This document shows positions 26,078 through 44,207 of a stretch of 50,517 nt of DNA, one piece after another. The position numbers and the translations under genes were made by a program. Every line of letters begins with the position of its first letter. The first letter of the stretch is position 1. Source of the DNA: Patescibacteria group bacterium UBA3458 (GTDB lineage: Bacteria > Patescibacteriota > Minisyncoccia > Phycocordibacterales > UBA2100); NCBI GenBank assembly GCA_002378745.1, contig DFRR01000003.1:1-50517 (forward strand), read 5' to 3'. The notes beneath the pieces were generated by a model. The model saw only the letters and a program-made list of their open reading frames with translations, searched no databases and was not told where the DNA came from.

Positions 26078-26148
26078 TGCCGGATCGTCTAATGGTAGGA
26101 CATCGCCCTCTGGAGGCGAGTATCTTGGTTCGAGTCCAAGTCCGGCAG
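26078..26148 (+). tRNA. tRNA-Gln (CTG)
   Basis: The acceptor is TGCCGGA/TCCGGCA with the Gln-typical U1:A72 pair. The D arm is GTCT-AATGGTA-GGAC, the anticodon loop is CTCTGGA, the T arm is CTTGG-TTCGAGT-CCAAG and the discriminator is G. Confidence 0.85.
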
Positions 26149-28125: not shown

Positions 28126-29329
28126 GAATAGGTACTATGTACCCATTACCTGTACGGTGTGTTTTAAGGTGTAGTTTTCTGCGGAGTATTTGCCCGATAG
28201 CCTTGCTGTGTATCCCTAAGCCGCAGTGGTGTGCAATTTCGTGCACAGTTGGTTTGTCTTTCTTTTTCTGAAGCTCTAGGAGCGCTGAAAGCACTACGTA
28301 TTCATCAGTTTCCTTGAATGTTTCAATTACTCGTCGATGGTGAGAGAAAGCTGCATTTACAAGGAAAGACTGTTCTTGCATCGTAGGGGCGATATTCATA
28401 AGCGGGAAGAACACCTGCCGTATACGTGGATGCACATCTTCACTTATTGCTAATCGACTCTTGGAGAGCACTTCTTTTGTGAAGGAGAATCGGTAAGCAA
28501 GGAGCATATTTCTTAATTCCAACGCTTCTTTTTCGAAACAATCGGGAAGAGTTGTTGGGACTTCATTGCGCGCCCCTGTTCCCACTACAACTTCAGATAA
28601 GCAACGACTCTCCAGTGCGTCATCTTGAAAACGCTCTCGAGTCGCAAGTAGCTTTGGTCCGTAGACCCAGAATGATTTCGGGTTAAATATGCCGTTCTTG
28701 CCATCTACACGCATAACAGGGAATCGTCTAGAATATCCCTGGTTAAGTATTTGAGCGATAGGGGTAGTCATATCAGAGAAGGCATAGTTCGCTTCATCAA
28801 GCACCATTGTGCCTCTCACTTGATCAACAATACGGAGAATGGATGCTGAAGTTGTTGAACCTCCTGCAAATGTTGCTTTGTAGCAAATTGACCCCACGAC
28901 TTCTAAGAAGCGTGTCTTTCCGCTTCCTGGATTTCCCAAAACACGAAGGTATGGGACTTCACTAAAGAAGTCATACACCCACGTAAGAAGGACATAATGC
29001 GCGACTATATTCTCGTATTCAGGAGACACTGCCACATACCTGTGTATATACTCCTGAACTCGCTTAAGGAGTGCCGAATCACTCTCATAGTTGCCAACCT
29101 CGCTTGGGAGGAGAATGACCCGATCCTCAAGGAGTTTGTTATGACCGCTTATGGGTTTGTAGACCATATCGTCGATCGGAAGGGATTTCTTTGTGTCCAT
29201 TTTGCCCTCTCGTTTTACACAGAAGAAGCTCTGACAATCCTTTTTGTTGTAGACAGACTCCGCTATCACGTTTCCGTGTTTGATGGATAGTATTTCCACT
29301 ACCTTCTTCTTATTTTTATCGGTGTTCAT
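28040..29329 (-). CDS. P-loop NTPase, DUF3631-like (mobile-element replication/primase-associated type)
   Basis: Has Walker A 'GNPGSGKT' and Walker B 'MVLDEA'. The segment 'ILNQGYSRRFPVMRVDG...FWVYGPKLLATRE...ALESRC' is recalled as the DUF3631 pattern found in integrative elements. The C-terminus is wHTH-like. Confidence 0.55.
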   Translation of the reverse strand: MNTDKNKKKVVEILSIKHGNVIAESVYNKKDCQSFFCVKREGKMDTKKSLPIDDMVYKPISGHNKLLEDRVILLPSEVGNYESDSALLKRVQEYIHRYVAVSPEYENIVAHYVLLTWVYDFFSEVPYLRVLGNPGSGKTRFLEVVGSICYKATFAGGSTTSASILRIVDQVRGTMVLDEANYAFSDMTTPIAQILNQGYSRRFPVMRVDGKNGIFNPKSFWVYGPKLLATRERFQDDALESRCLSEVVVGTGARNEVPTTLPDCFEKEALELRNMLLAYRFSFTKEVLSKSRLAISEDVHPRIRQVFFPLMNIAPTMQEQSFLVNAAFSHHRRVIETFKETDEYVVLSALLELQKKKDKPTVHEIAHHCGLGIHSKAIGQILRRKLHLKTHRTGNGYIVPILGNENALKEAQRRFEIKNEQNEGSELTK

Positions 29330-29342
29330 GTCGTTTTTTGTT

Positions 29343-29588
29343 TTAGAAATCTTCGTACTCTGTTGGGAGTTTTGAGAAAGAGTTTTGCACGTTCATAAGC
29401 ATTTTAGGCTCGACCTTTGTTTTACCTTCGAAGTATGCAATGACGTTATCTTCAATCTCTTTACTTGCTCCAAAAGAGAAATATGGGTTTAGTTTATTTC
29501 CTCTTCCGTACATCACTTTTGGGTACTCTTCCATAATGATGTATAGAGTCGCTGCAAGCGTGATGTCGTTCGTTATGTAATTTTTCAT
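29343..29588 (-). CDS. Small hypothetical protein, paralogue of 29741-29968
   Basis: 81 aa. It shares the N-terminal 'D(I/F)(T/A)LAATL' motif with its neighbour and resembles small phage/plasmid proteins. Confidence 0.45.
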   Translation of the reverse strand: MKNYITNDITLAATLYIIMEEYPKVMYGRGNKLNPYFSFGASKEIEDNVIAYFEGKTKVEPKMLMNVQNSFSKLPTEYEDF

Positions 29589-29739
29589 AGTTGTGTAAGT
29601 TATTTAGATTGTTGGTAGCTGCGACGAAGCGAATCAACTCGGCACTCTCGGTGAGTGCTTGTGCTTTTGTTATCTCCTTTCCGTAATGCCGTTTGTACAG
29701 CTCTTGGAAGGTAGTTAAGAGTTGATCCGAAAGTTGCAT
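29494..29739 (-). CDS. Small helical hypothetical protein
   Basis: 81 aa, 'LLTTFQELYKRHYGKEITKAQALTESAELIRFV'. The 3' end overlaps the next gene by about 95 nt, so the C-terminal extent is doubtful. Confidence 0.35.
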   Translation of the reverse strand: MQLSDQLLTTFQELYKRHYGKEITKAQALTESAELIRFVAATNNLNNLHNYEKLHNERHHACSDSIHHYGRVPKSDVRKRK

Positions 29740-29740
29740 A

Positions 29741-29968
29741 CTATCCAGCGTGAATAATCGATTTTAGAAACTTCTGGGAATACAGAAATTTCTGTGGGCT
29801 GATACAGATTTCGTCTCTGTAGTAAGCGGGCACCACTCGTTCTACGTCCTCGGTTTTTTCAAAACGAAAAACAAACTTGTTACCAAGCTTTCGTTCGTGT
29901 TCAAGATATTTAGCTCCTAGGGCGTGGAGAGTAGCAGCGAGGGCGAAGTCTTCAGTTTCGTAGATCAT
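29741..29968 (-). CDS. Small hypothetical protein, paralogue of 29343-29588
   Basis: 75 aa, 'MIYETEDFALAATLHALGAKYL'. It is the first gene of the leftward small-gene string. Confidence 0.45.
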   Translation of the reverse strand: MIYETEDFALAATLHALGAKYLEHERKLGNKFVFRFEKTEDVERVVPAYYRDEICISPQKFLYSQKFLKSIIHAG

Positions 29969-30079
29969 ATTCTGTTTATGTAATGCTCATAAATTTTTAT
30001 CGACCAATAACCAAACAGTAAGAAAAAGAAAAAGCTGAAAAAATGACGAAAGCATATTTTTGACACACTAAAAATCCCT

Positions 30080-30104
30080 GCTGGTGCAGGGTTTTATGAG
30101 TTTT
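30080..30104 (-). terminator. Bidirectional hairpin terminator downstream of the 238-aa gene
   Basis: 'aaaaatccctgc tggt gcagggtttt' has a 6-bp GC-rich stem flanked by an A-run and a T-run. Confidence 0.6.
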
Positions 30105-30121
30105 CCACTTTTTAAGCTTTC

Positions 30122-30838
30122 TTAAGTTTTGTTTTTGCGTTGAACGTATGCTTTCTCACTGATCGAGTCTATCTGTATGGCGGGGCATAGCTCGCTTCCT
30201 TCTTGTCGAACTATTGTAGATATGGGCAAACGGGTCTGTGTGTACAGACGATTATTTTTGTTGGAGTTGAGGTAGTCTAGTACTTTCTTTTGGTACAGGG
30301 CATAACCTTTTGTTGCAATCTCGTATAGAGAACTCCAAGTAGGCTTAGCTCGGTCACCCATTATTGGATTTTGGTAATCATCATTAACAACCATCAAAAA
30401 CTTATTTCCGCCGTCTTTTGGTTTTATGCAGGTGATTTTGTATATGGAGTTGTCCGACTTTAGGCTCGGTTTCTTAGGAATTACTTTCTCAACCGATCGA
30501 AGATACGCCAGCCGTTCAGTGGCTGCTGTGCGTATGTTCTTGAGGAGTTGTTGTGACTCTTTGCTCTCTATGTATGAATATTCAAGTCCGCCTTTAAGAA
30601 AGGGAACGTTATCTGCTTCGAGAAAATATAAAGCACCTTTTTCGTTGTTGATCGATAAAAAGAAATCCCTAACCGCCTCCTTCCATAGATGATAGTCACG
30701 AAAAGTGTCGTGCATTTTTTCGACAGGATTGTCCGCATATAAAATATCGCCCTCGTGGGCGCTGTGTGTGATGAGAATTCCTTTGCGAACTAACTCGTCG
30801 AAAGTATCTCTTATAGCCGCCTGGTTCTTAATACTCAT
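30122..30838 (-). CDS. Hypothetical protein (238 aa), island-encoded
   Basis: A long ORF with normal amino-acid composition, an own terminator and a divergent promoter region. No motif was recognised. Confidence 0.5.
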   Translation of the reverse strand: MSIKNQAAIRDTFDELVRKGILITHSAHEGDILYADNPVEKMHDTFRDYHLWKEAVRDFFLSINNEKGALYFLEADNVPFLKGGLEYSYIESKESQQLLKNIRTAATERLAYLRSVEKVIPKKPSLKSDNSIYKITCIKPKDGGNKFLMVVNDDYQNPIMGDRAKPTWSSLYEIATKGYALYQKKVLDYLNSNKNNRLYTQTRLPISTIVRQEGSELCPAIQIDSISEKAYVQRKNKT

Positions 30839-30843
30839 ATTTA

Positions 30844-30852
30844 TGGTATAAT
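30844..30852 (+). promoter_or_regulatory. Extended -10 promoter element (TGGTATAAT) facing the 31043 gene
   Basis: A perfect TGnTATAAT lies about 190 nt upstream of the ATG at 31043. On the other strand it overlaps a TATGAT-type box 8-12 nt upstream of the divergent 30838 start. Confidence 0.4.
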
Positions 30853-31042
30853 CATACTACAACTGAATAAGAAATGACCTAACCCTTCGGCTTTTGCTGG
30901 AGATATGGTCGAAAATCGTAGACCACAGAAAACCCATCATTAGGGCGTGGTCTACGTTATAGGGGGAAACTCCTATAGGAGCTTCGGCTCTCCTAGTGGT
31001 GGGCTTTTTGTACCCACCCGCTTAGTAGCTTTCTGAATCAAT

Positions 31043-31990
31043 ATGAAAACTAATCGGGGCTTTATTTCAATATTTGCAGCAGTACTTATTGTCCTTGGTG
31101 TTACTGCGGTTGCAGGAGGAGGGTATGTCGCGACCCAATATGCGTTACGGGATAATACGCATCAGCAACCCATTGCTGAAGAAGAGAGAATTGCAACTTC
31201 AAGCACTCACACACAAACGAGTGTGCCCCAGGAAGAACAGAAGGACACAGAAAAACCACCCCTTAATCTCGACGACTACAAAATAGAAAGTGAACAGACA
31301 GAGCCCTCACATCCAGAGGACTTGGCAGACTCTATGCTCGCCGATATTGAGCGCCTCACATATGTCGATACTCTCGAACAAGACATCGTCGATTTCAGGA
31401 GGCTATTAAATGCGATTTCTAAGAACGAAGCACTCTACATAAAGTTTGCACAAGATGCAGGTAATGATAGAGCTGACGCACTTGATAGTTTGACTTCACT
31501 AACGACGAACGCGGAACTCAAACAGCTTATCTCAAGCTCTGCTACAGATTTTCGTGGGCACGCAACAAATGCGGCAGATGAACTTAGTGAACCTTATGAA
31601 CTTGTAGCAAGCGAAGTCAAAAAGTATCTTGCAGCAACAGAAGCAGCGAAACGTGCAATCGAGCAAGGAGCACCTTACAATGACGCAGAAGGGGTTATTG
31701 CTGAGAATAAACAACAATTTGAACGGCTGGTTAGTTTGTTGGAGTCTGCAGATAGTGCGGTGCGCAATGTTGAGAACGCAAAAGCAGATATCTATTCAGA
31801 AACACTATCATCTATACGTGACATACTTGCAGTGCAGAGTGTATCGTTTAGTCTGAGTGCTCAGTTGGCGAATATCGAGCAAGAAGCGCTTGAGAATACC
31901 TTGCCGCAAACTGAAATACAGTGCTGGGCAACTACTGAATACAGTGGTGGGTTGAATGGCTCATCATACACGACGGTCAGATGTGAGTAG
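31043..31990 (+). CDS. Membrane-anchored / secreted coiled-coil protein, function unknown
   Basis: 315 aa with an N-terminal hydrophobic anchor 'GFISIFAAVLIVLGVTAVAGGG', followed by an acidic, Ala/Glu-rich helical region. Confidence 0.5.
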   Translation: MKTNRGFISIFAAVLIVLGVTAVAGGGYVATQYALRDNTHQQPIAEEERIATSSTHTQTSVPQEEQKDTEKPPLNLDDYKIESEQTEPSHPEDLADSMLADIERLTYVDTLEQDIVDFRRLLNAISKNEALYIKFAQDAGNDRADALDSLTSLTTNAELKQLISSSATDFRGHATNAADELSEPYELVASEVKKYLAATEAAKRAIEQGAPYNDAEGVIAENKQQFERLVSLLESADSAVRNVENAKADIYSETLSSIRDILAVQSVSFSLSAQLANIEQEALENTLPQTEIQCWATTEYSGGLNGSSYTTVRCE

Positions 31991-31992
31991 AT

Positions 31993-32292
31993 ATGAAAAT
32001 ACAAATTCCAAAAGAATACGAAGAACACTTCCGAGATGACGTTGTGTATGTGACAAGATGGAAATCGCCGAGCTTACTTTTGATGAACGAAGCAGAGCAC
32101 GATAGTTTCCAGAAAATTCTTGAAGGCTCTCGGGTGGATTGTAAAGATGGGATGCTACGCTTCATTCGGGCTGGAATTCTTGATCTCAAAATTGAGGATG
32201 GGGCTATAGATATCCCCAATGGTGTGGGTAGCTTCCTACAAGGTGAAAACAGGGCATTTCATAGGGGAAAAGCAGGAATTGCGCTCTCCTAG
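31993..32292 (+). CDS. Small hypothetical protein (weak MraZ/AbrB-like two-repeat impression)
   Basis: 99 aa, starting 2 nt after the previous stop. It contains 'KIQIPKEY' and a second 'AIDIPNGV' repeat. The assignment is speculative. Confidence 0.35.
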   Translation: MKIQIPKEYEEHFRDDVVYVTRWKSPSLLLMNEAEHDSFQKILEGSRVDCKDGMLRFIRAGILDLKIEDGAIDIPNGVGSFLQGENRAFHRGKAGIALS

Positions 32293-32372: not shown

Positions 32373-33515
32373 ATGGCTAAGAAAAAGCAGTGGAAATCTG
32401 GCACATATCGCCAGCAATATGAATACAAGAGCTTTCTCCCCGAGAAGGTGAATGTTCCATTTGAGTGGGAGGATCCTCGCATTGACCTTCTCTTGAGTGA
32501 TGCAATGCGCTACCTGGGCGAGCTTAATGCTTATTCCACACTCGTGCCTGATGTCGACTTCTTCATCCAGATGCACATCTCAAAAGAAGCAACTGTCTCA
32601 AGTCGCATTGAGGGTACGGAGACTAACCTTGATGAGGCGCTTTTGTCTGAAGATGAAATTGACCCAGAAGATCGTGATGACTGGGGTGAGGTGCAGAACT
32701 ATATCAAGGCAATCAACTTTTCAGTTGAGAAACTTTCCGAACTGCCATTGTCTACACGCCTGGTGAAGGACACACACAAAGTGCTCCTCTCTGGGGTGCG
32801 TGGATACAGCAAGTTGCCAGGAGAGATTCGTACAAGCCAAAACTGGATTGGAGGGTCTTCACTTACGGATGCGGCTTTCATTCCACCGCACCACACTGAT
32901 GTTGCTGACCTTCTCGATGATCTGCAGAAGTTTTGGCACAACAAGCAGCTTCAAGTACCCGAATTGGTACGGATTGCTTTGACCCACTATCAGTTTGAGA
33001 CAATCCACCCGTTCCTTGATGGAAACGGGCGTATTGGACGTTTGCTCATCACGTTGCAACTTATCGACCTCGGCATCCTTCAGAAGCCAACGCTCTACAT
33101 CTCTGACTTCTTTGAGCGCAATCGATCGAAATACTACGACTCTCTTTCACGAGTACGCGAGAGTAATGACATTGAGCACTGGGTTCGCTTTTTCTTGCAG
33201 GGCGTCGTTGAGACTGCAAAGAAAGGGAAAGAAACATTCGAGAAGATCATTGCCCTTCGTGCAAAGTATGAGCAGATCATTGAGGAGCGAATGGGAGTGA
33301 AGCGGCAGAAGCTCGCAAAACAGCTTCTACTCAAACTCTTCTCCAAACCCGTCGTAACGGTGAATGACATCGCTGAGATGCTCAACGTGACCTTCCAGAC
33401 GGCAAACACACTCGCCAAAGAGTTTGAAGACGCGGGGCTCTTTGAGGAGAAAACAGGCTTTTCTAAGAACCGCATCTTTTATTTGCGAGAGTACCTAAAA
33501 CTCTTTAACCACTAA
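32373..33515 (+). CDS. Fic/DOC-family protein (AMPylase type) with an N-terminal inhibitory helix and a C-terminal wHTH
   Basis: The Fic motif is '[12 protein letters not shown]' and the inhibitory motif (S/T)xxxE(G/N) appears as 'SSRIEG'. At 380 aa it fits the Fic_N + Fic + HTH architecture. Confidence 0.9.
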
Positions 33516-33519
33516 ACGT

Positions 33520-35505
33520 ATGAACGACTTCAGCAAAAAAGCAGCCCTTATATGGAACATCGCGGACATTCTCCGTGGTGGCTGGAAGCAGCACGAATAT
33601 CAGGATGTAATCCTGCCGCTTTTAGTGTTGAAGCGTTTGGACGCTATTCTCTCTGATTCGAAAGAGAAGGTGCTTGATAAGTACAACGAATACAAAGGGA
33701 AAGTAGATGTCGATCCGATCTTGAAGAAAACGTCAGGTGTTGGCTTCTACAATGTATCACCGTACGACTTCAAAAAGCTCACTGAAGATCACACGCATAT
33801 CGTTAAGAACTTCCACAACTACCTCAACGGCTACAGCGATAACATTCGTGACATCTTCGACAAATTCAACTTCGATAAGCAGCTCGAGCGTCTTGAGGGT
33901 GGCAATATGCTCTACCTCATCATCCAAGAGTTCAACAAGGTAGACCTTCACCCAGACAGTGTTGATAACCATCAAATGGGACTTATCTTCGAGGAATTGC
34001 TCCGAAAATTCTCAGAAATGTCCAATGAGACTGCGGGAGAGCACTACACGCCCCGTGATGTGATTCGGCTTATGGTCGAGGTTCTCTTCACTCCTGATGA
34101 GAAGCTACTCAAGAAGCCGCACGTGATTAAAACAGTGTACGATCCTGCGTGTGGTACAGGCGGGATGCTCACTATCGCTAAGGATTACATCCTCAACGAG
34201 ATCAACAAAGACGCATCAGTGTATCTGCACGGACAAGAACTCAACTCGGTCACATACGCTATTGCGAAGTCCGATATGCTTATCAAGGGTGAGGATCCAG
34301 AGTTGATTCGTGGTGGAGAAAAAAATCACACTAAAGCAAGCACGCTCTCAAATGACCAGTTCTTTGGGGAGAGCTTTGATTACGGGCTTTCAAATCCACC
34401 ATATGGCGTTGATTGGAAAAAAGATAAGGATGCAGTTGAGAAAGAAGCGACCCGTGGATTTGCGGGGCGGTTTGGTGCAGGCACGCCTCGTATCTCAGAC
34501 GGACAGCTTCTTTTCCTCCAACACTTGGTTTCTAAAATGCGACCCACAAAAGACGGTGGATCTCGTGTTGGTATTGTCCACAACGGCTCACCGCTCTTTA
34601 CAGGTGATGCTGGAAGCGGAGAAAGTGAAATTCGTCGTTGGCTTCTTGAGAAGGATTATCTCGAGGCAATCATCGCACTCCCAGATCAGCTTTTCTACAA
34701 CACAGGCATCAACACATACCTGTGGTTTGTGAGTAACCGCAAATCACCTGAACGCCAGGGCAAAGTGCAGCTTATTGATGGACGTGAGTTCTATGGGAAG
34801 CTACGTAAAACGCTTGGCGCAAAGCGTAAAGAAGTAGATGAGGAAGGACGTAAGCAGATTATGAAGCTCTACACCGACTTCAAGGAAAATGAGCATTCTA
34901 AAATATTCGACACTACGGACTTTGCATATCGCCAAGTTACGATTGAGCGTCCCTTGCGGCTCAACTTCCAGGTATCACCAGAGCGCAGTGAGCTTGTAAA
35001 AGAAGAGAAAGTGTTCCAACGCCAAAAGCCAACAATCCAAGAAGAAATTCTTGGGGCACTATCTAATTTTCCAGACAAAAAGCTGTTTACTGACCGAGAG
35101 AAGTTCCTAAAGGTTTTCAATTCGCATATGAAGGAGCTAAAACTTGGCGCCCCATTGAAGAAAGCAATCCTCAACGGTTTGTCTGAGCAGGATGAAAATG
35201 CAGAGATTTGTCGTGACAGCAAGGGTAATCCAGAACCAGACGGCAACTTGCGAGACCAAGAAAACGTACCGTGGGGCGTAAGTGTCGAAGAGTACTTCAA
35301 AAAAGAGGTACAGCCATACGTTGAGGATGCGTGGCTCAATGAAGAGGTGCGAGATCATAAGGACAACCAGGTTGGGAAGGTTGGCTACGAGATTCCGTTC
35401 ACACGATACTTCTACACGTATGAACCACCACGTGATCTTGAGGAAATCGAAAAGGATATTGAAGGTGTGGAGAATGAACTCCTCACGCTTTTGAAGCAAC
35501 TATAA
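33520..35505 (+). CDS. hsdM: Type I restriction-modification methyltransferase subunit HsdM
   Basis: The N-terminal HsdM_N region is 'IWNIADILRG', the AdoMet motif is 'DPACGTGGML' and the catalytic motif is 'NPPYG'. Confidence 0.95.
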   Translation: MNDFSKKAALIWNIADILRGGWKQHEYQDVILPLLVLKRLDAILSDSKEKVLDKYNEYKGKVDVDPILKKTSGVGFYNVSPYDFKKLTEDHTHIVKNFHNYLNGYSDNIRDIFDKFNFDKQLERLEGGNMLYLIIQEFNKVDLHPDSVDNHQMGLIFEELLRKFSEMSNETAGEHYTPRDVIRLMVEVLFTPDEKLLKKPHVIKTVYDPACGTGGMLTIAKDYILNEINKDASVYLHGQELNSVTYAIAKSDMLIKGEDPELIRGGEKNHTKASTLSNDQFFGESFDYGLSNPPYGVDWKKDKDAVEKEATRGFAGRFGAGTPRISDGQLLFLQHLVSKMRPTKDGGSRVGIVHNGSPLFTGDAGSGESEIRRWLLEKDYLEAIIALPDQLFYNTGINTYLWFVSNRKSPERQGKVQLIDGREFYGKLRKTLGAKRKEVDEEGRKQIMKLYTDFKENEHSKIFDTTDFAYRQVTIERPLRLNFQVSPERSELVKEEKVFQRQKPTIQEEILGALSNFPDKKLFTDREKFLKVFNSHMKELKLGAPLKKAILNGLSEQDENAEICRDSKGNPEPDGNLRDQENVPWGVSVEEYFKKEVQPYVEDAWLNEEVRDHKDNQVGKVGYEIPFTRYFYTYEPPRDLEEIEKDIEGVENELLTLLKQL

Positions 35506-35507
35506 CT

Positions 35508-36800
35508 ATGTCGAAATTAACGCTTACAAAAAAATACGGTGTGTATCCAAATTACAAGGACTCTGAAATTGATTGGATTGGACTCACTCCTACTGACTGG
35601 CAAGCACTGCCTCTTCGAGCGGCTCTCGTGGAGAGAAAAGAAAAAAATAGATCTCTAGTTTCTGACAATATCCTTTCCGTAATGAAGGACGTTGGAGTAA
35701 TCCGTTATGCTGACAAAGGAGATATTGGAAATAAAAGTTCTACTCGTCCTGAGAACTACAAGATAGTTCACCCTGGCGACATTGTTATCAATAGTATGAA
35801 CCTTGTGATCGGTTCAGTAGGTCAATCGCGGGAATTTGGTGTAACGAGTTCCGTGTATATCATCTACGCGCCTAGGACTGAGGACATAAACGCAACATAC
35901 TACTCATATATTTTCCGAAACAGAAGTTTCCAAAAACATATGGCTCGCTTCGGTAAGGGAATAATGGAACTTCGAGAATCAATAAAACCAATTGATCTAA
36001 AAAATCAGATCTTGCCTATCCCACCCAAAGATACGCAGGATAAAATTGTAGAATTTTTGGACGAAAAAACGGCGACAATCGACCGCATTATTGAGAAAAA
36101 GCAGCGGCAGATTGAGTTGCTCAAAGAAAAGCGAGCGGCAGTAATCAATCACACTGTTACAAAAGGTCTCGATCCAAAAGCGAAACTCGTCGACTCTGGT
36201 GTGGAGTGGATGGGAGAGATTCCTTCAGATTGGGATAAAGAAAAACTGAAGTTTGTTGCGCCACTTCGTAACACTAAGGCTAATAAAGAAAAGGTTGATC
36301 TGCCGTATGTAGGTCTTGAACACATTGAAAGTGCAACTGGTCGGCTATTGAAGAGTGAAGAAAAGGCGGAGCCTGAGAGCGTTGTGAATCTGTTTGAGAA
36401 AGGCGATGTCCTCTTTTCAAAGCTACGCCCAAATTTAGCTAAGGTATTACTCCCTGAATTTGATGGTATGTCTACAGGAGAGCTGCTTGCACTAACCCCA
36501 AATACAACGAAGATAATTCCATCATATCTTTTCTACAAACTGATCAGTAGAGATTTTATTAACAAGGTTTGTGACTCTGTTTATGGAGCAAAAATGCCGC
36601 GAGCAAACTGGAATTTGATTGGCAGTCTATACATTACATACCCATCAATTTCTGAGCAGAAAAAAATAGTAGACCATATAAACAAAAAGGTTGAAAAAAT
36701 TGATGCCGCATTGGAGTTAATTCAAGATTCCATAAAAACATTGCAGGAATTCAAATCATCGCTGATTTCACACGCTGTAACTGGAAAAATAAAAGTATGA
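35508..36800 (+). CDS. hsdS: Type I R-M specificity subunit HsdS (two target-recognition domains)
   Basis: 430 aa. The central and C-terminal conserved helices are 'IIEKKQRQIELLKEKRAAVINHTVTKG' and 'IKTLQEFKSSLISHAVTGKI'. It lies between hsdM and hsdR. Confidence 0.9.
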   Translation: MSKLTLTKKYGVYPNYKDSEIDWIGLTPTDWQALPLRAALVERKEKNRSLVSDNILSVMKDVGVIRYADKGDIGNKSSTRPENYKIVHPGDIVINSMNLVIGSVGQSREFGVTSSVYIIYAPRTEDINATYYSYIFRNRSFQKHMARFGKGIMELRESIKPIDLKNQILPIPPKDTQDKIVEFLDEKTATIDRIIEKKQRQIELLKEKRAAVINHTVTKGLDPKAKLVDSGVEWMGEIPSDWDKEKLKFVAPLRNTKANKEKVDLPYVGLEHIESATGRLLKSEEKAEPESVVNLFEKGDVLFSKLRPNLAKVLLPEFDGMSTGELLALTPNTTKIIPSYLFYKLISRDFINKVCDSVYGAKMPRANWNLIGSLYITYPSISEQKKIVDHINKKVEKIDAALELIQDSIKTLQEFKSSLISHAVTGKIKV

Positions 36801-39748
36801 TTAAAACAAACACAAAAGAAATAGGTTTTGAAGAGCTGATCGAAAAACAGCTCTCAAAACTCCACAAGTATCGGGTTCGTACTGCGAGCGACTTCGATAA
36901 GGAGCTTGCGATGGACAAAGCACTTGTAGTTGAGTTCGTGCAGACCTCTCAGCCAGAAGCGTGGGAGAAGCTCGTCGAGCAATACGGAGCGGATGTGGAG
37001 TCAGAATTTTTGAAGCGTCTTGATGCGGAAATTGCGTCCCGCGGGCTTTTGGATGTATTTCGCGATGGCATTAGTGATCGTGGTGTCAAAGTCAGCCTGG
37101 CTTTTTGGAAGCCACAGAGTCACCTTAATGAAGAGGTATGGCAGGACTATGAACACAACATTCTCAGTGTGATGCGGCAGGTGAAGTACAGTACCAAGAA
37201 TGAAAACTCTATCGACCTGGCGATTTTCCTCAATGGTCTTCCGATATTTACTGTTGAGCTCAAAAATCAGCTCACTAAACAAACTGCTCGTGATGCAATC
37301 CGCCAGTATAAAACCGACCGCGATCCTCGAGAAAAGCTCCTTTCCTTCAAACGCTGCTTAACACACTTCGCGGTAGACACTGAGCAGGTGTATATGACAA
37401 CGCAGCTTAAGGGGCTTGCGACGCGCTTCTTGCCATTCAATAAGGGGTACAAGAACTCGTCAGGCAATCCTCCTGTTGAGGGTAAATACAAGACGCACTA
37501 CCTTTGGGAAGATGTGTGGGCTAAGGACAGTGTCCTTGACTTAGTTGGCAATTTTATTCACCTGCAAGTTCAGGAGAAGGAAGATAAGAATGGGAAGAAA
37601 ACCAAAGAGGAAGTACTTCTTTTCCCACGCTACCACCAACTTGATGCCGTACGCCGTATTATTGGTGATACCCAAGAACAAGGATCAGGAAAGAATTACC
37701 TCATTCAGCACAGTGCGGGTTCAGGAAAGAGTAATACGATTGCGTGGTCTGCACACCGACTTTCAGAGCTTCATAATGAGAATGATGAAAAAGTATTCGA
37801 CTCCATCATTGTCATTACCGACCGCCGCATTCTTGATAAACAGCTCTCAGACACGGTTGAGAGCTTCTCACAGGTACGTGGTGTCGTTAAGCACGTGGAG
37901 AGCTCTGCAGAGCTTCGTGAGGCGCTTGAGAACGGTGTAAAAGTGATTACGAGTACTCTCCAGAAGTTCCCTGTAATTGTGGATGCGATTGATCAAGTTC
38001 AGGGAAACAAGTTTGCGGTATTGATTGATGAGGCGCACTCGTCACAAACGGGTGAAGCTGCCGCTGACCTCCGCCAGGTACTTACCTTGGAGGATGCCGA
38101 AAAGCAAGCGCAGAAGGAAACAAAAGCATTCAAGACCTCAGAGGATCTTATTATCGAGCGAATGAAGGCACGTAAGGTGAAGACACCAAACGTGAGCTTT
38201 ATTGCCTTTACTGCAACACCTAAACAAAAAACACTTGAGTTGTTTGGAGTAGAGGATCCAATTTCGGGAAAGTTCATTCCATTTTCGCTTTACTCAATGC
38301 GACAAGCGATCGAGGAAGGATTTATTCTTGATGTACTCAAGAACTACACTACATATCAAACGTACTTCGAGCTTCTGAAGACCATTGAGGATGATCCAGA
38401 GTATGACAAGGCAAAAGCACAACGTCTCCTTATCGGATACGTGGAGAAACACGAGCACGCTATTGAGCGTAAAACGCAGATTATGGTGGAGCACTTTGAA
38501 GAGAAAATAGCTCCACTTATCTACGGGCAAGCAAAGGCAATTATTGTCACCAAGTCACGCCTTCACGCGGTGAAGTACAAGCAAGCGTTTGATAAGTACC
38601 TCCAGGAGAAAGGATACCCACACAAGGCACTTGTGGCGTTTTCGGGAACGGTTCGCGATGGAAAACTCGACTACACAGAAACACAGATGAACGATGGTAT
38701 CCCCGAGAAGCAAACCGCAGAGGAGTTTAAGAAGGACGACTACAAATTCCTCATTGTTGCAGAGAAGTTTCAGACTGGTTTTGACCAGCCACTTCTCTCG
38801 GTGATGTATGTCGACAAGAAACTTAGTGGTGTAAATGCGGTACAGACACTCTCGCGGCTAAATCGCACCACAGCGGGAAAGAGTGATGTGTTTGTGCTTG
38901 ATTTTGTGAACGAGGCTGATGACATCAAAGAAGCATTCCAGCCGTACTACACAACTACCGTGCTCTCACAGGCAACTGATCCGAACATTTTGCACGACCT
39001 TGAGCGGGATGTGTTCCAATTCAAGCTTTTCAGTCTCAATGAGATAGAAGGGTTTGTAGAAGAGTATATGAACGGTGCATCGCCCGACACACTCAACGCG
39101 ATGCTTGATGAGGTAGTGGAGCGTTCTATGTCGCTTCTGGACGAGGAGCGAGACGATTTCAAGTCGAAAGCGCAGGACTATATCCGCAAGTATGCCTTCA
39201 TTTCTCAAATCGTCACCTTCGAAGATCCAAAACTCGAACGCTTGTATATTTTCTTGAAGTTCCTTGTGCGCAAACTACCAACTCGGGTAGAGCCGCTACC
39301 ATACGAGGTGTTGGAGTCCGTAGATATGGACTCGTACAAGGTTCAGAAGATCGCTGACACAAAGATTCGCTTGGATAATGATACTGAGGAGCTTGAACCA
39401 ATGGGCTCGGGAGATAGTGGCACAAAGAAACTTGATGAGCTTGATCCGCTCTCCAAAATAGTCAAAGAAATCAACGATCGCTTCGGTACGGTATTTACTG
39501 ATAAAGACAAGGTGATTTTGAACTCACTGAGCGCAAAGTTGTTGGAGGACAAGAATCTTGAAGGATCAATTAAGAACAACACCCGTAATGCGGCAAAGAT
39601 CAAGTTCAATAAGATGTTCAATGATGAGCTCGTTGAGATGCTCAACAGTCACTTCGACCTTTACAAGAAGTTGGACTCAAGTCCAGAGCTTAAGGAATTT
39701 GTGAACGATCGCATCTTCGAGTTCGTGCTCAAAAAAACTAAGAAATAA
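36797..39748 (+). CDS. hsdR: Type I restriction enzyme endonuclease/translocase subunit HsdR
   Basis: 983 aa. It has an N-terminal PD-(D/E)xK region ('DLAIFLNGLPIFTVELK'), helicase motif I 'SAGSGKSNT', motif II 'DEAHSSQ' and 'QTGFDQP'. It overlaps the hsdS stop by 4 nt. Confidence 0.95.
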   Translation: MIKTNTKEIGFEELIEKQLSKLHKYRVRTASDFDKELAMDKALVVEFVQTSQPEAWEKLVEQYGADVESEFLKRLDAEIASRGLLDVFRDGISDRGVKVSLAFWKPQSHLNEEVWQDYEHNILSVMRQVKYSTKNENSIDLAIFLNGLPIFTVELKNQLTKQTARDAIRQYKTDRDPREKLLSFKRCLTHFAVDTEQVYMTTQLKGLATRFLPFNKGYKNSSGNPPVEGKYKTHYLWEDVWAKDSVLDLVGNFIHLQVQEKEDKNGKKTKEEVLLFPRYHQLDAVRRIIGDTQEQGSGKNYLIQHSAGSGKSNTIAWSAHRLSELHNENDEKVFDSIIVITDRRILDKQLSDTVESFSQVRGVVKHVESSAELREALENGVKVITSTLQKFPVIVDAIDQVQGNKFAVLIDEAHSSQTGEAAADLRQVLTLEDAEKQAQKETKAFKTSEDLIIERMKARKVKTPNVSFIAFTATPKQKTLELFGVEDPISGKFIPFSLYSMRQAIEEGFILDVLKNYTTYQTYFELLKTIEDDPEYDKAKAQRLLIGYVEKHEHAIERKTQIMVEHFEEKIAPLIYGQAKAIIVTKSRLHAVKYKQAFDKYLQEKGYPHKALVAFSGTVRDGKLDYTETQMNDGIPEKQTAEEFKKDDYKFLIVAEKFQTGFDQPLLSVMYVDKKLSGVNAVQTLSRLNRTTAGKSDVFVLDFVNEADDIKEAFQPYYTTTVLSQATDPNILHDLERDVFQFKLFSLNEIEGFVEEYMNGASPDTLNAMLDEVVERSMSLLDEERDDFKSKAQDYIRKYAFISQIVTFEDPKLERLYIFLKFLVRKLPTRVEPLPYEVLESVDMDSYKVQKIADTKIRLDNDTEELEPMGSGDSGTKKLDELDPLSKIVKEINDRFGTVFTDKDKVILNSLSAKLLEDKNLEGSIKNNTRNAAKIKFNKMFNDELVEMLNSHFDLYKKLDSSPELKEFVNDRIFEFVLKKTKK

Positions 39749-39752: not shown

Positions 39753-41111
39753 ATGCAAGCTGCCTTTAAAAAATTTCTCACGAACATAAAACTCACCGTT
39801 CCTCAAAAAGAGGACGCAAAGACAAAAACGAGAAGTGTTTGTAAGGCACTCCACGCTAAGTACTATCCGAACACCGAGTATAACGGCAGCACCAAATTCT
39901 TGGTTGGTTCTTATGGTAAACACACAAATATTCGTCCACCGAAGGATATAGACGTGATTTTCAAGTTACCTCCAGAGTTATATGAGCAATACAGTTCGGG
40001 TAATAAACAGTCGCAGCTATTACAGGATGTCCGAGCAGTTTTGAAAGATACCTTCACTACCACTGAGAAAATCAGCGCTTTCGGTAAGGTGATAGTAATT
40101 AACTTCAGCGAGGGTACTCATTCGGTTGAATTACTACCTGGTTGGGAGTTAGAGTCTGGGTCATTTCGCATTCCTAACACGGAGAACGGGGGATCTTGGG
40201 ATGTGTGGAATCCGCTTGCAGAAGATAAAAATATAGATGTCTCAAGTGTGGCGACAAAAAAGACCCGATCTCTTATACGGATGATGAAAGCGTGGGTGAA
40301 TAATTGCGGCGTACCACTCAAATCATTCGTGTTAGAGATATTGGTAGTTGATTATTTGCACGAGCAATACAATAACAACGTGACGGTTGAGTATCCAGAA
40401 CTTGTTCAGGGATTCTTTGACTTTCTTAAGAATAAAAAGCACGGTTCTATATATCTACCTGCTTCTGGTACGCATATGAATTTAGGGGAGGATTGGTACT
40501 CACGAGCTGAAAGTGCGTACAATCGCGCCACAAAAGCTATTGAATACGAACAGGCGGATAAATTGCGGGATAGCTCTCTTGAGTGGAAGAAAATTTTTGG
40601 TGATGACTTCCCATTGGTAGACGCTAAAGAAGCCGCCGTAGCTACTGTTGGTTCAAGTTTTGAACTGAAAATAGAAGAGTTGACCCAAAGGTATCCTTCG
40701 CCAGCTGAGGAAGATATCACTGAACAATACGGGATTCCTGTTCGTCTCGTCTCTGGGTATCAAATTGAGATTGACGCTGAGGTAACACAGAAAGGTTTTA
40801 GGAAAGGAATGCTATCGGACTTCATAGCGAAGCGATTTCCTCTGTTGAAAGGTAAAAAGCTTCTTTTCTCTGTAAAGCATTGCAACATACCGCCTCAGTA
40901 TGAAGTGATGTGGAAGGTCAGAAACTTTGGAGAGGAAGCACAGCGGGCGGAAGGTCTACGGGGAGAGATAAATCGAGACAGTGGATTCAAGCAACGTGAA
41001 GAAAGTACGCTTTATCACGGCGAACACTATGTTGAATGCTACGCCATCAAAGATGGTGTTTGTGTTGCGGTTGGGAAAATATTAGTACCTATTGGAACAA
41101 GTTATGAATAA
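39753..41111 (+). CDS. CD-NTase / SMODS-type nucleotidyltransferase with an AGS-C-like C-terminal domain
   Basis: 452 aa. The pol-beta NTase core is 'FLVGSYGKHTNIRPPKDIDVIF' (G52-S53, D65-x-D67). The third acidic position lies in 'HSVELLPG' (E126). The C-terminal beta-rich domain has 'YEVMWKVRNFGEEAQRAEGLRGEI'. The gene starts 4 nt after the hsdR stop. Confidence 0.7.
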   Translation: MQAAFKKFLTNIKLTVPQKEDAKTKTRSVCKALHAKYYPNTEYNGSTKFLVGSYGKHTNIRPPKDIDVIFKLPPELYEQYSSGNKQSQLLQDVRAVLKDTFTTTEKISAFGKVIVINFSEGTHSVELLPGWELESGSFRIPNTENGGSWDVWNPLAEDKNIDVSSVATKKTRSLIRMMKAWVNNCGVPLKSFVLEILVVDYLHEQYNNNVTVEYPELVQGFFDFLKNKKHGSIYLPASGTHMNLGEDWYSRAESAYNRATKAIEYEQADKLRDSSLEWKKIFGDDFPLVDAKEAAVATVGSSFELKIEELTQRYPSPAEEDITEQYGIPVRLVSGYQIEIDAEVTQKGFRKGMLSDFIAKRFPLLKGKKLLFSVKHCNIPPQYEVMWKVRNFGEEAQRAEGLRGEINRDSGFKQREESTLYHGEHYVECYAIKDGVCVAVGKILVPIGTSYE

Positions 41112-41568
41112 AACTGAAATATTAAAAAACGAATGCAAGACAATAGAGGACAATGCTCGTCATACAGCAGAAGCTCATTATCTGATTGCAGCAAAGAGTA
41201 AACGTACTGCAATCATCCTCGAAGTTATCCCTGCTCTTATCGCCGCTTCCTCAGGTCTGTTGGTTGTGGGTGAGATTATCCCAATTTGGTGGGGATGGTT
41301 GACTGTGGTTTCGGCATCCGTCACAGCAACCAGTAGTATCATAAGCCCCCATAAATCCTATTATGAAAATTTGAATGCAGGAAAAGCTTTTACGGTGGTA
41401 AAGAATCGAGCAAAGTCTCTGAATGAAACTTTTGCAAACCTCAGTGCCGAAGAGGAATTGTGCAAGGAAGTGAAAGCGCTTTCAGAGTACTACAACCAAC
41501 TTGTGCTTTTAACACCACCAACGCAGGAATGGGCGTATAAAAAAGCAGAAAGGAAATTATCAAAATGA
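41104..41568 (+). CDS. SLATT-like 2-TM effector protein
   Basis: About 154 aa. After the N-terminal helix 'ARHTAEAHYLIAAKSKR' come two adjacent TM helices (AIILEVIPALIAASSGLLVVG and IPIWWGWLTVVSASVTATSSII) and then a C-terminal helical region. The start ATG at 41104 overlaps the NTase stop (ATGAATAA). Confidence 0.6.
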   Translation: MNKTEILKNECKTIEDNARHTAEAHYLIAAKSKRTAIILEVIPALIAASSGLLVVGEIIPIWWGWLTVVSASVTATSSIISPHKSYYENLNAGKAFTVVKNRAKSLNETFANLSAEEELCKEVKALSEYYNQLVLLTPPTQEWAYKKAERKLSK

Positions 41569-42635
41569 AATATTTATACGATCAAAGTCATTACGAAGAT
41601 CTTTACGATCGAGCCACTGTGTCTCGTTGCCGTTGGATAGAAGACTTTCATACACGGTACGATCCAAAACAAAAACCAAAGACTAAAGAAGAGAAAGCTA
41701 TGTTAGATGCAGCTCAAAAGATGGCGCTTCATTATGACCTTCTTTTTACTACTGGCGAGCGTTATTTAGAGCGAGACACTACGATACGAGAGTGGGTTGA
41801 GCGAGATACTAACAGGCAAGAAATGTATGACAACGCCGAAGCGCCTGGAGGTGTACTGTGCCCGACGTGTGGAACAAGAATGGATGCAACCTTCAAGATG
41901 CTCTACGACCTTGATAAGGAAAAAGACGAGAGAGTTCTCTTTATGTATGACTGTCCAGAAGGTTGTATGCCGCGACGCTCATTCTTTCAAGATGGCGAGG
42001 AATGGGTTGCGCAACATAAATCTTGTAAGGAATGTGGAGGCGAGATAAAGGTAGAAGATAAAAGTACTAAAAAGAAATCAATCATCACGTCTACGTGCAC
42101 TGAATGCGGCTTGGTTGATGTGAGTGAACACGAATTTGAGACAGAGAAAGACGACGAGAAATTTGAGGAAGATCGAAAAAGATTTTGTTTGTCGCAAGAA
42201 AAAGGTCAAGAGTACATCGAAACTAAGCAGTGGTTTAAAGATGTAGAAGTTTTGATGGATGAATTAAAAGAGCGAGAAGAAAAGAAAGACGAATATGATG
42301 CGGTAAAGAAGCTATCAAAACTCACCGTATCTCAACTTGAAAAGAAACTCGCAGAAGCAATGTCAAAGGATGGATACTCCCGCCTAACATTTGATAAGCC
42401 CGAGATCGGAACTGACGTTCGGATCGGCTTTACCGTAAACGATGACAGCAGTGAAGTGGACGAATATACAAGCCGAAACAAACTAAAGAAACTTATTAGT
42501 AAGACGCTCGAGGATACAAATTGGCGACTTATGACGGAAGGCATATCGTACCGTCTCGGTATTCTCACAGGACGATTGCGAGGCTACGAAAGCGAAGCAG
42601 ATTTACTGAAGCTCGTGAGTTCGGGGCGTAAATAG
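41565..42635 (+). CDS. Double zinc-ribbon / coiled-coil protein, function unknown
   Basis: 356 aa with two CxxC...CxxxC/CxxC pairs ('CPTCG..CPEGC' and 'CKECGG..CTECG'), a Glu/Lys-rich coiled coil and a C-terminal globular domain. It overlaps the upstream stop by 4 nt (ATGA). Confidence 0.6.
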   Translation: MKYLYDQSHYEDLYDRATVSRCRWIEDFHTRYDPKQKPKTKEEKAMLDAAQKMALHYDLLFTTGERYLERDTTIREWVERDTNRQEMYDNAEAPGGVLCPTCGTRMDATFKMLYDLDKEKDERVLFMYDCPEGCMPRRSFFQDGEEWVAQHKSCKECGGEIKVEDKSTKKKSIITSTCTECGLVDVSEHEFETEKDDEKFEEDRKRFCLSQEKGQEYIETKQWFKDVEVLMDELKEREEKKDEYDAVKKLSKLTVSQLEKKLAEAMSKDGYSRLTFDKPEIGTDVRIGFTVNDDSSEVDEYTSRNKLKKLISKTLEDTNWRLMTEGISYRLGILTGRLRGYESEADLLKLVSSGRK

Positions 42636-42650
42636 GTATAATTACATTAT

Positions 42651-43577
42651 ATGGCGGATCTATCACGATTAAAAAAAGTAGACCTCAGAGAAGCTTGGAA
42701 GCACGAAGCTATTGATTTTACGAACTGGCTGGCTCAAGAGGAGAATCTCACGTTACTTGGCGATGAGATTGGTTTTGATATTGAATTAACGCAAACAGAA
42801 GCTGCTGTCGGGAGTTTCAATGTTGATATTCTTGCCGAGGAAGCAAACACAGGTAAAAAGATAATTATCGAAAATCAGCTCGAGATGACTGATCACGATC
42901 ATCTTGGAAAGATAATTACTTATGCCTCTGGATATGATGCCAGGGTGATTGTGTGGGTTGTGCGTGACGCAAGAGAAGAGCATAGGAATGCGGTTGATTG
43001 GTTGAACGAACACACTGATGAAGATATGGAGTTTTATCTGGTGCGTATTGAAGTATGGCAGATTGAAAGTTCTCCGCTTGCTCCAAAGTTTGAAATACTC
43101 TCACGTCCGAATGATTGGGCAAAGGCGGTTAAGGAGTCAACAACCCGAACAGCACTTACAGATACTAAGCTTAAGCAGCTTGAATTTTGGACTCAGTTCA
43201 AAGAATACGCGAAAGAGAACAATACCCCTCTGCGTTTTCAAAAGGCATATCCGCAGCATTGGACTAACATAAGTATTGGGCACAGCAATCTCCACGTTGC
43301 TCTTACTATCAACTCAAGGGATAAGCAGTTTGGTGTGGAGGTTTATATACCAGATAACAAGGAGCTATTTGCGACGTTGTTTGAGCATAAGGCGCAGATA
43401 GAGTCTGAGGCAGGAAGTGAACTTGAATGGATGGAATTACCTGAAAAGAAAGCGAGTCGAATCAAATTATCTCTCGCAGGGGATTTTGAGGACGAGAGCA
43501 ATTGGGAGCAGTACTTTGAATGGCTCTTGAGACAGGCGGAAAAGTTCAAAGAGGTCTTCCCGAAATATTGGGGCTAA
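42651..43577 (+). CDS. PD-(D/E)xK-type nuclease-fold protein with a DUF4268-like C-terminal domain
   Basis: 308 aa. 'FNVDILAEE...KKIIIENQLEMTDHDHLGKIITYA' matches a D...E-x-Q/K restriction-endonuclease-like core. The C-terminal 'FWTQFKEYA...' half resembles DUF4268. Confidence 0.6.
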   Translation: MADLSRLKKVDLREAWKHEAIDFTNWLAQEENLTLLGDEIGFDIELTQTEAAVGSFNVDILAEEANTGKKIIIENQLEMTDHDHLGKIITYASGYDARVIVWVVRDAREEHRNAVDWLNEHTDEDMEFYLVRIEVWQIESSPLAPKFEILSRPNDWAKAVKESTTRTALTDTKLKQLEFWTQFKEYAKENNTPLRFQKAYPQHWTNISIGHSNLHVALTINSRDKQFGVEVYIPDNKELFATLFEHKAQIESEAGSELEWMELPEKKASRIKLSLAGDFEDESNWEQYFEWLLRQAEKFKEVFPKYWG

Positions 43578-43607: not shown

Positions 43608-44207
43608 ATGGATACTAATTACCCACTACAAAATAACGAAGAAAAAGTTGTTCAACGATCAGATACCGCACTAACGGAAGAAATTGTTCGTGCAATAGTT
43701 CAACGTATTCGGAACGGCAAACCTATAACAAAAAGAGGAAGAAAAACTCTTCTTCTTGATTATGCACCAGGGCAGCAACCCGTGAGTGTCTCAACGTACA
43801 CTTCTTGGCTGAGGAGAGGAACCACACCGCTTAACAGTAAGGAGAATCGCTCTTTGAGGGATATTGTAGACGAAGCCCGAATTGAAGGAAGACAGCGACT
43901 ACACGAGGAAATGTTGCGCAAGGCAGAAGAAGTACTTGGTTCTCATTTGGAACTTAAAACTGGAGAGAAAATAGTGCACAAACGCATCAACAAAGACGGG
44001 AAAGTAGAGTTGTATAACAGTACGCGACTTGTACCAAAGCTGGTTGATACTAAGCAGCGAGCTGCTGAGTTTGTAGCTAAGAAGCTCGATCCACAAACCT
44101 ACGGAGATTCAGTAAAAACTGATAACCGACACTTGATCTTTTCTTTATCTGAACTTCGCCGATATCAAGAGGAAAAGGACAGATTGAATCAGACACAATC
44201 ACAATAA
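43608..44207 (+). CDS. Hypothetical basic/helical protein at the island end (terminase-small-subunit/HTH-like impression; possible directionality factor)
   Basis: 199 aa. 'RAAEFVAKKLDPQTYGD' resembles small-terminase/HTH proteins. It is the last gene of the co-directional array. Confidence 0.4.
   Translation: MDTNYPLQNNEEKVVQRSDTALTEEIVRAIVQRIRNGKPITKRGRKTLLLDYAPGQQPVSVSTYTSWLRRGTTPLNSKENRSLRDIVDEARIEGRQRLHEEMLRKAEEVLGSHLELKTGEKIVHKRINKDGKVELYNSTRLVPKLVDTKQRAAEFVAKKLDPQTYGDSVKTDNRHLIFSLSELRRYQEEKDRLNQTQSQ

Follow-up and report, generated by a model that had tools for sequence, protein, structure and literature searches.

Two probably self-sufficient genes beside a type I CBASS in a probable patescibacterial mobile defense island: a double zinc-ribbon protein and a predicted Madara-family nuclease

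Do genes that closely follow a cyclic oligonucleotide-based antiphage signaling system (CBASS) in a defense island belong to it? The question is raised by contig DFRR01000003.1 of Patescibacteria group bacterium UBA3458 (assembly GCA_002378745.1), of which positions 1 to 50,517 were analyzed; this whole 50,517-nt stretch is called the window below. It harbors, on the forward strand, a CD-NTase gene (a cGAS/DncV-like nucleotidyltransferase; 39753–41111), a SLATT gene (41092–41568), and two genes that we named ORF356 (41565–42635; 356 aa) and ORF308 (42651–43577; 308 aa). An earlier note, made from the sequence alone, had proposed that the four genes form a single system, or that the last two form a separate two-gene module, or that the nuclease-like ORF308 product is an additional CBASS effector. 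We reach a different reading, which we consider probable: ORF356 and ORF308 are two unrelated and self-sufficient genes, located beside a self-sufficient type I CBASS in a mobile defense island of approximately 18 kb. To our knowledge, Patescibacteria are a phylum with almost no experimentally tested defense biology.

The upstream pair is a complete and ordinary two-gene type I CBASS. The CD-NTase matches the Pfam families SMODS (4e-25) and AGS_C (4e-39) and the PADLOC Cyclase model (1.2e-118). The SLATT protein matches the PADLOC two-transmembrane effector model (3e-17) and NCBIfam SLATT_4, with 62.8 bits for a cut-off of 55. Like the window pair, type I CBASS consist of a cyclase and a two-transmembrane effector, with no ancillary genes. 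Neither ORF356 nor ORF308 matched the CBASS ancillary proteins (Cap2/Cap3, HORMA/TRIP13, and QueC/OGG) in Pfam, PADLOC, or NCBIfam, and neither matches a SAVED or STING signal-binding domain. They do not co-occur with cyclases beyond the lineage of this island and are best left out of the CBASS. The remark of the earlier note that this arrangement is not a described CBASS type is correct.

ORF308 is a member of the PDC-S11/Madara family and as such a predicted type IV (modification-dependent) restriction nuclease. Its residues 1–306 align with positions 1–311 of the 318 positions of the PADLOC profile PDC-S11 (PDLC04911; 9.3e-128), three more PDC-S11 models also match, and so does phrog_27742 (4e-70). 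PDC-S11 was renamed Madara in a September 2026 preprint, which reports that a single Escherichia coli Madara gene restricts T-even phages with glucosyl-hydroxymethylcytosine but not unmodified T4(C), and that a D63A mutant in its NucS-like PD-(D/E)xK domain is dead (bioRxiv 10.64898/2026.09.05.749240). Two DUF4268 nucleases identified in 2025 by functional metagenomics, MdgA and MdgB, show the same phenotype as Madara; purified MdgA degrades modified T4 DNA in vitro, and its E77A mutant is dead (bioRxiv 10.1101/2025.02.28.640651). DUF4268 is also a known accessory domain of the GmrSD type IV enzymes.

The N-terminal domain of ORF308 (42651–43100) is NucS-like and of the PD-(D/E)xK type. It contains the VDILAEE...IIIENQLE motif, with E19, D59, E74-N75-Q76, D81, H82, H84, and K87 as its marked residues. 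Among these, E19, D59, E74-N75-Q76, H82, and H84 are invariant both in an alignment of homologues from five phyla (A5, including Alphaproteobacteria, Deinococcus, haloarchaea, and Thermotogota) and in an alignment of 27 closer relatives (A6), D81 being invariant in A5 only and K87 in A6 only. By position and without direct alignment, D59 would correspond to D63 of Madara and E74 to E77 of MdgA. In the AlphaFold2 (AF2) model (pLDDT 78), the N-terminal half resembles EndoMS (5gke_A; probability 1.0, E 2e-3) and NucS (2vld_A; probability 1.0, E 3e-3, rmsd 3.7 Å over 117 columns), both with modest E-values. The C-terminal domain (43176–43568; residues 176–306) is DUF4268 (Pfam PF14088, 4.2e-35, 121 bits for a cut-off of 27). 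ORF308 is a PD-(D/E)xK/DUF4268 protein, as the earlier note had proposed. Its predicted core is intact, so that the loss of the nuclease site, which the note had named as a finding against its proposal, is not seen. The C-terminal half (model m5a0546cceaf3) is most similar to the YbjN/AmyR, type III secretion-chaperone fold (E 6e-4, probability 1.0), rather than to the EVE-like fold that the Madara authors had suggested, and the nature of the modification sensor may merit re-examination.

By analogy with Madara and MdgA, the DUF4268 domain of ORF308 would recognize hypermodified phage DNA, and the PD-(D/E)xK domain would then cut it, presumably with no need for a partner or a nucleotide signal. 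ORF308 and Madara share a full-length hidden Markov model (HMM) match, a NucS-like nuclease with an Asp/Glu core, and a C-terminal DUF4268. Both Madara and the ORF308 family are solitary, have varying neighbors, and are found beside restriction-modification (RM) or BREX-type (bacteriophage exclusion) systems in defense islands. Homologues of ORF308 are solitary on plasmids of Alphaproteobacteria, Deinococcus, Thermotogota, Actinomycetota, and haloarchaea, and their neighbors differ each time, as seen on Agrobacterium, Deinococcus, Haladaptatus, and Marinitoga plasmids. ORF308 differs from the Madara-type relatives sampled by its patescibacterial host and by being less than 45% identical to the plasmid-borne ones. 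MdgA and MdgB are functional analogues, also single-gene modification-dependent nucleases carrying DUF4268, and are separate from Madara. GmrSD is likewise predicted to attack modified DNA; ORF308, however, has neither DUF262 nor DUF1524, and its nuclease domain is PD-(D/E)xK/NucS-like and not His-Me. As the PDC-S11 family has been shown to act as a single gene, the idea that ORF308 is an additional CBASS effector finds no support.

ORF356 and ORF308 are both real genes, since they belong to large families of full-length homologues, with 352 (90% identity) and 830 (50% identity) clusters for ORF356 and 7103 clusters at E ≤ 1e-10 for ORF308. When one genome was scanned for each GTDB species, relatives of ORF356 turned up in 315 species genomes. 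The large majority of these genomes are labeled Patescibacteria, and we assume that the other labels reflect binning or labeling noise. No relative was matched in 50,697 phage genomes. Two ORF356 paralogues are present on separate contigs in three metagenome-assembled genomes (L028/L029, L027/L037, and L072/L080), which fits a mobile and accessory gene.

We surveyed 80 loci encoding ORF356 homologues with their 10-kb flanks, in which ORFs were called and proteins clustered. No DUF4268 or SLATT gene was found in any of the 80 loci. SMODS was found in two and type I RM in eight, and the one SMODS gene located, in L074, is not adjacent to the ORF356 homologue but at position +4. The immediate neighbors are highly diverse, as 56 clusters occupy position −1 and 72 clusters position +1, in 76 loci each. 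The upstream ones include KAP/QatA-like, HamB, SduA, type IIG, TIR, Mrr, DUF2779, and type I/III RM proteins; the downstream ones include methyltransferases, Old/GajA/AriA-like proteins, AbiJ, AbiLi, and DUF4238, amid housekeeping genes. Homologues of ORF356 therefore show no conserved linkage to CD-NTase, SLATT, or DUF4268 genes, a situation that the earlier note itself had named as contradicting its proposal. At least 33 loci have a labeled defense cluster within five genes on either side of ORF356, a raw count given with no background rate. On one IMG/VR contig (L084, 10001–11119), the ORF356 homologue is broken into two ORFs (73 and 298 aa), probably by a frameshift or as a pseudogene; it adjoins a type I RM system whose subunits are 31–48% identical to those of the window.

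Close relatives of the window island were recovered by exact-protein look-ups. Four of them (L177–L180) have the gene order of the window, CBASS included, together with the whole backbone formed by a Fic gene, the type I RM genes hsdM, hsdS, and hsdR, and, at the other end, ORF199, which follows ORF308. The four-gene order recurs only in these islands, which share the backbone by descent. In L170–L173, Fic, hsdMSR, ORF356, the PDC-S11 gene, and ORF199 are kept, and a 777-aa AAA_16 ATPase replaces CBASS (7664–9997 in L170). L174 keeps hsdR, ORF356, and an ORF199-like gene, with an 813-aa unknown protein in the CBASS slot (1922–4363). Neither L174 nor L176 contains CBASS or PDC-S11, and in both an 821/822-aa GmrSD-type enzyme is encoded where PDC-S11 would be (5432–7897 in L174). 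The two slots flanking ORF356 have thus been exchanged while ORF356 stayed, that is, they swap independently of it. Because it has no constant neighbor and is kept while both flanking slots are swapped, ORF356 is probably an autonomous cargo gene and not an accessory of CBASS or of PDC-S11, and its family is almost restricted to Patescibacteria.

The spacing of the genes does not contradict this independence. The coordinates of both ORFs, the overlap of the ORF356 start codon with the SLATT stop codon as ATGA (aaaATGAaa), and the start of ORF308 15 nt past the ORF356 stop were all confirmed. However, the direct coupling that the earlier note had read into them carries little weight, because short gaps and overlaps are the norm in these compact genomes. 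In the surveyed loci, the background same-strand gap has a median of 15.5 nt, 53% of the gaps are of 20 nt or less, and 22% of same-strand neighbors overlap; the median in the window itself is 15 nt. The tight spacing reflects genome compaction and island co-transcription, not functional coupling. The 15-nt spacer ahead of the ORF308 ATG (42636–42650) contains a perfect TATAAT (ggTATAATtacattatATG), which might be the promoter of a near-leaderless transcript or be due to chance in AT-rich DNA. A scan of 39–45 kb for promoters and terminators gave counts not above those of shuffled sequence.

What kind of protein, then, does ORF356 encode? The earlier note described it as an uncharacterized double zinc-ribbon protein, and this description stands. 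The cysteine pairs CPTCG/CPEGC and CKECGG/CTECG and the Glu/Lys-rich helix are present. In an alignment of 32 homologues (A1), C99, C102, C130, C154, C157, C178, and C181 are invariant and C134 is nearly so; C22 and C208 are also conserved, which brings the conserved cysteines to ten. The AF2 model (pLDDT 89) consists of an N-terminal helical hairpin (residues 7–90), two three-stranded Cys4 ribbons, a long helix (about residues 200–249), and a C-terminal alpha/beta domain (residues 253–356). The first ribbon (41859–41966) is formed by C99, C102, C130, and C134, with model strands at residues 107–114, 123–129, and 138–141. The second (42024–42107) is formed by C154, C157, C178, and C181, with strands at residues 160–167, 171–178, and 184–190. 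The motif most strongly conserved across the family in A1, TNWRLM..G..YRLG.L.GR.R.YE, belongs to the C-terminal domain (42321–42632). The sole structural likeness of this domain, a weak one (E ~7e-3), is to alpha/beta plaits of the S24e/S6/uL23 type.

No family in Pfam, PADLOC, NCBIfam, or PHROG matches ORF356 above threshold. The Pfam matches below threshold, which concern the second ribbon, are DZR (PF12773; 18.1 bits for 27.3) and Zn_ribbon_LysW (16.4 for 27), and all NCBIfam matches are below their cut-offs. A Foldseek search of the PDB and BFVD with the model returned nothing at E ≤ 1e-3, a sequence-profile search of the PDB nothing below E 0.03, and domain-wise HMM searches no other architecture in the surveyed loci. 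TFIIS/Rpb9, Lar, and LysW are zinc-ribbon proteins too, two Cys4 three-stranded ribbons being present in ORF356, and two relatives of ORF356 have been automatically annotated by JGI as "RNA polymerase subunit M/TFIIS." The matches to these proteins are nevertheless below threshold or limited to the ribbons, and the helical and alpha/beta domains of ORF356 have no counterpart in them. Inspection of A1 by eye revealed no invariant histidine or recognizable catalytic signature. Several specific candidates were considered and rejected: a HEPN Rx4-6H motif at R23..H29, as H29 is not conserved; an HUH or His-Me finger, as there is no invariant histidine; and a DksA-like coiled-coil tip, as no segment varies more than the tip loop.

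A few proteins of the ORF356 family (P0328, P0335, P0359, P0375, P0382, and P0381) are extended at the C-terminus by about 170 aa that contain a CxxC..CxxC motif and a helix-turn-helix (HTH)-like segment. In P0381 the extension is found in place of the alpha/beta domain, and in P0328 it is followed by an AAA_18 kinase-like domain. The same module also occurs as a free-standing ORF of 180–220 aa in loci with an integrase and a large terminase subunit (L092, 1929–2558; L095, 4366–4914; L115, 20380–21027; L124, 6474–7136). The extension, which no Pfam family confirms, hints at nucleic-acid binding.

ORF356 is also the fastest-evolving conserved gene of the island. It is 59–63% identical in four sister-island comparisons, where HsdM, HsdR, and PDC-S11 are 85–90% identical when shared. 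Between the window and L177, identities are 86% for HsdM, 86% for HsdR, 87% for PDC-S11, 78% for ORF199, 71% for the CD-NTase, 80% for SLATT, and 62.6% for ORF356. With L170, which has neither the CD-NTase nor SLATT, they are 90%, 88%, 89%, and 73% for HsdM, HsdR, PDC-S11, and ORF199, respectively, and 62% for ORF356. The number of nonsynonymous substitutions per site (dN) is 0.30 for ORF356 and 0.06–0.09 for HsdM, HsdR, and PDC-S11, which is 3–5 times faster, and the divergence is even along the protein. As synonymous divergence (dS) is saturated between sister islands, dN/dS could not be computed and dN alone is usable.

We propose, at somewhat less than even chances, that ORF356 is a non-enzymatic protein that would bind nucleic acid or a phage protein and act as a stand-alone immunity or counter-immunity factor. 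This proposal is based on the lack of a catalytic motif, the two zinc ribbons, the long helix, the Arg/Tyr-rich plait, and the CxxC/HTH-like tail of some relatives. More tentatively still, ORF356 may found a Patescibacteria-specific family of single-gene anti-phage or anti-defense proteins, with a combination of hairpin, ribbons, and plait not seen before, carried by undescribed defense-island vehicles that encode a serine integrase and small (TerS) and large (TerL) terminase subunits.

Several points weigh against these interpretations and against the independence of ORF356. The protein has no enzymatic motif or known fold, and the richness of its flanks in defense genes comes from raw counts without a formal background. 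Its fast evolution could reflect relaxed constraint and not an arms race. Gene calls in the surveyed loci were simple ORF calls, and many of the metagenome contigs are short. PADLOC v2 dates from 2023, so that systems named since then could include the ORF356 family. Finally, every ORF356 gene of the island lineage precedes a type IV nuclease gene (PDC-S11 or GmrSD) and, beyond it, ORF199, which would fit a lineage-specific partnership.

The main rival explanation for ORF356, which we regard as unlikely, is that it serves the mobile element itself, for example as a recombination directionality factor, an integrase regulator, or an island transcription factor. In 55 of the 80 loci, an integrase module (serine integrase, TerS, or TerL) is encoded no more than 10 kb from ORF356, mostly upstream and divergently transcribed. 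In 13 loci it is directly adjacent, with ORF356 and the integrase diverging from a shared intergenic region of 111–559 bp. The zinc-ribbon, helix-rich, and probably DNA-binding architecture of ORF356 and the HTH-like tail of some relatives would also suit a regulator. The best profile matches in this module are phrog_95 for the serine integrase (7e-59), phrog_24579 for the TerS-like HTH protein of about 140 aa (1e-9), and phrog_38 for TerL (1e-78).

The first survey had led us to count ORF356 among the core genes of the element, a view overturned by a second survey centered on TerL. Scanning metagenomes with a TerL alignment recovered 80 loci in which the integrase-TerS-TerL trio is near-universal, and ORF356 occurs in only two of them; of the 33 loci that extend 5 kb or more beyond the integrase on its upstream side, one has it. 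ORF356-linked TerLs are scattered among unlinked TerLs, and only 4 of 16 have an ORF356-linked nearest neighbor. Given this rarity and this patchiness on TerL similarity, ORF356 is accessory cargo in the variable flank of the element and not a core gene. The element can therefore do without ORF356. The gene is patchily distributed on the TerL phylogeny, a recombinase is absent from the 10-kb surroundings of 25 of the 80 ORF356 homologues, and the rate of evolution of ORF356 is several times that of the backbone genes, all of which speaks against a role in element maintenance or regulation.

The module itself looks like an undescribed satellite-like integrative element. It is nearly invariant in hundreds of patescibacterial contigs, with at least 454 TerL relatives (surveyed loci L001–L085 and L086–L165; examples are L033 at about 4–10 kb, L091, and L113). 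The serine integrases are often two in tandem, TerL is about 490 aa long, and a further integrase is often encoded just downstream; a variable flank rich in defense genes diverges from the integrase, and no portal, capsid, or replication gene was seen in these loci. Like P4-/P2-like hotspots and the cargo of phage-inducible chromosomal islands (PICI), it is a compact integrase and packaging element with interchangeable immunity genes, cassettes being swapped at fixed slots. It differs from them in its core, made of a large serine integrase, a TerS-like HTH protein, and TerL, and in its patescibacterial hosts; moreover, ORF356 is cargo here, and not a core gene flanking a hotspot. We came across no account of either the ORF356 family or this integrase/TerS/TerL element in the literature searched.

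We consider two further explanations improbable, and about equally so. The first is that ORF356 is a generic accessory, a regulator or chaperone, of whichever defense gene lies immediately upstream. ORF356 is indeed often located at the 3′ end of co-directional runs of defense genes, with a median upstream gap of 10 nt. These gaps are nevertheless close to the background (64% versus 53% of 20 nt or less; 24% versus 22% overlapping), the 13 loci in which ORF356 is directly beside the integrase have no defense gene upstream, and the upstream genes belong to mechanistically unrelated systems. The second is that ORF356 and the type IV nuclease downstream, PDC-S11 or, in L174 and L176, GmrSD, form a lineage-specific two-gene module in which ORF356, perhaps together with ORF199, would control the nuclease, direct it to its target, or hold it in check. 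All members of the island lineage examined do encode ORF356, a modification-dependent nuclease, and an ORF199-like protein in this order, with spacings from a 17-nt overlap to a 16-nt gap. Against such a module, which was also among the proposals of the earlier note, stand the exchange of the nuclease slot, the absence of a DUF4268 neighbor from the 80 other ORF356 loci, and the variety of the genes at +1 and +2 (72 clusters in 76 loci). The 25 recurrent Pfam families shown for these two positions, of 125 matched in all, do not include GmrSD_N. PDC-S11 homologues are solitary in other phyla and act as single genes, and no ORF199-like gene was found among the 80 loci.

The least credible explanation, to which we give hardly any chance, is a single CBASS-derived system in which the CD-NTase and the SLATT pore would be joined by ORF356, acting as sensor or adaptor, and by ORF308, a second nuclease effector activated by the signal. 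The four genes do lie side by side in one orientation, ORF356 overlapping SLATT by 4 nt and ORF308 following after 15 nt, and their order recurs in L177–L180. The islands as a whole are, however, related by descent, which accounts for the recurrence, as Fic, hsdMSR, and ORF199 are collinear too; L170 has ORF356 and PDC-S11 without CBASS, and the linkage counts, the missing CBASS domains, the autonomy of PDC-S11, and the ordinary spacing all argue against it. ORF356 and ORF308 as independent genes next to an independent CBASS remain the reading that we prefer.

The island that unites these genes begins on the left, probably, at a tRNA-Gln gene (26078–26149, forward strand) and a large serine integrase gene (26089–27822, reverse strand; Pfam Resolvase, Recombinase, and Zn_ribbon_recom). 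It continues with a Fic gene (32373–33515), the hsdM-hsdS-hsdR genes (33520–39748; hsdS at 35508–36800, encoding the specificity subunit), CBASS, ORF356, ORF308, and ORF199 (43608–44207), all on the forward strand. The Fic gene opens this co-directional run directly upstream of hsdM, and the type I RM system, identified by family-profile matches, is part of the backbone of the island. The GC content is 0.41–0.46 across approximately 26–45 kb and 0.47–0.50 outside this block, and the integrase clusters with integrases adjoining ORF356 homologues elsewhere.

The tRNA-Gln gene and the 3′ end of the integrase ORF overlap by about 60 nt on opposite strands, an arrangement that points to insertion at this tRNA gene or within it. 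Adjacency to a tRNA was rejected as a general trait of these elements. The window has a single copy of the 3′ half of tRNA-Gln, and direct repeats linking 25–46 kb do not exceed the length expected by chance. The lack of a long attachment (att) repeat is expected for a serine integrase. As no att repeat is detectable, the right boundary is only bracketed between 44177 and 44418, where homology to L177 and to L170 stops, respectively.

The conserved genes of the island lineage end with ORF199, an HTH protein with a weak likeness to small terminase subunits (phrog_1482, 5.5e-5) that is 64–78% identical in L170, L174, and L177. Its membership in the integrase-adjoining TerS-like cluster was rejected, since the HMM gave no match and the window lacks a TerL. 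Six ORFs between the integrase and Fic (28040–32292), of 429, 81, 75, and 238 aa on the reverse strand and of 315 and 99 aa on the forward strand, have no Pfam or PHROG match and are further uncharacterized cargo. The Fic gene lies directly ahead of hsdM in every sister island that extends this far (1–780 in L170, where it is 93% identical; 1–826 in L177), which suggests an association of Fic with type I RM in the island backbone. HsdS shows only 37–38% identity between islands in which HsdM and HsdR reach 86–90%, which fits the swapping of specificity subunits. L170 has an extra 200-aa gene (4099–4701) inserted between hsdS and hsdR.

Read as a string of autonomous modules, the locus is a textbook mobile defense island, and its annotation as a new four-gene type of CBASS is averted. 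The assignment of ORF308 extends the range of Madara/PDC-S11 to the Candidate Phyla Radiation. ORF356, with about 830 clusters at 50% identity that are very largely patescibacterial, a confident but unmatched structural model, defense genes as neighbors, and fast evolution, has a profile from which new immunity genes have repeatedly emerged. If the tentative view of its carriers is true, serine-integrase/TerS/TerL elements would be the main vehicles of defense islands in these ultra-small bacteria, and this vehicle may itself deserve study.

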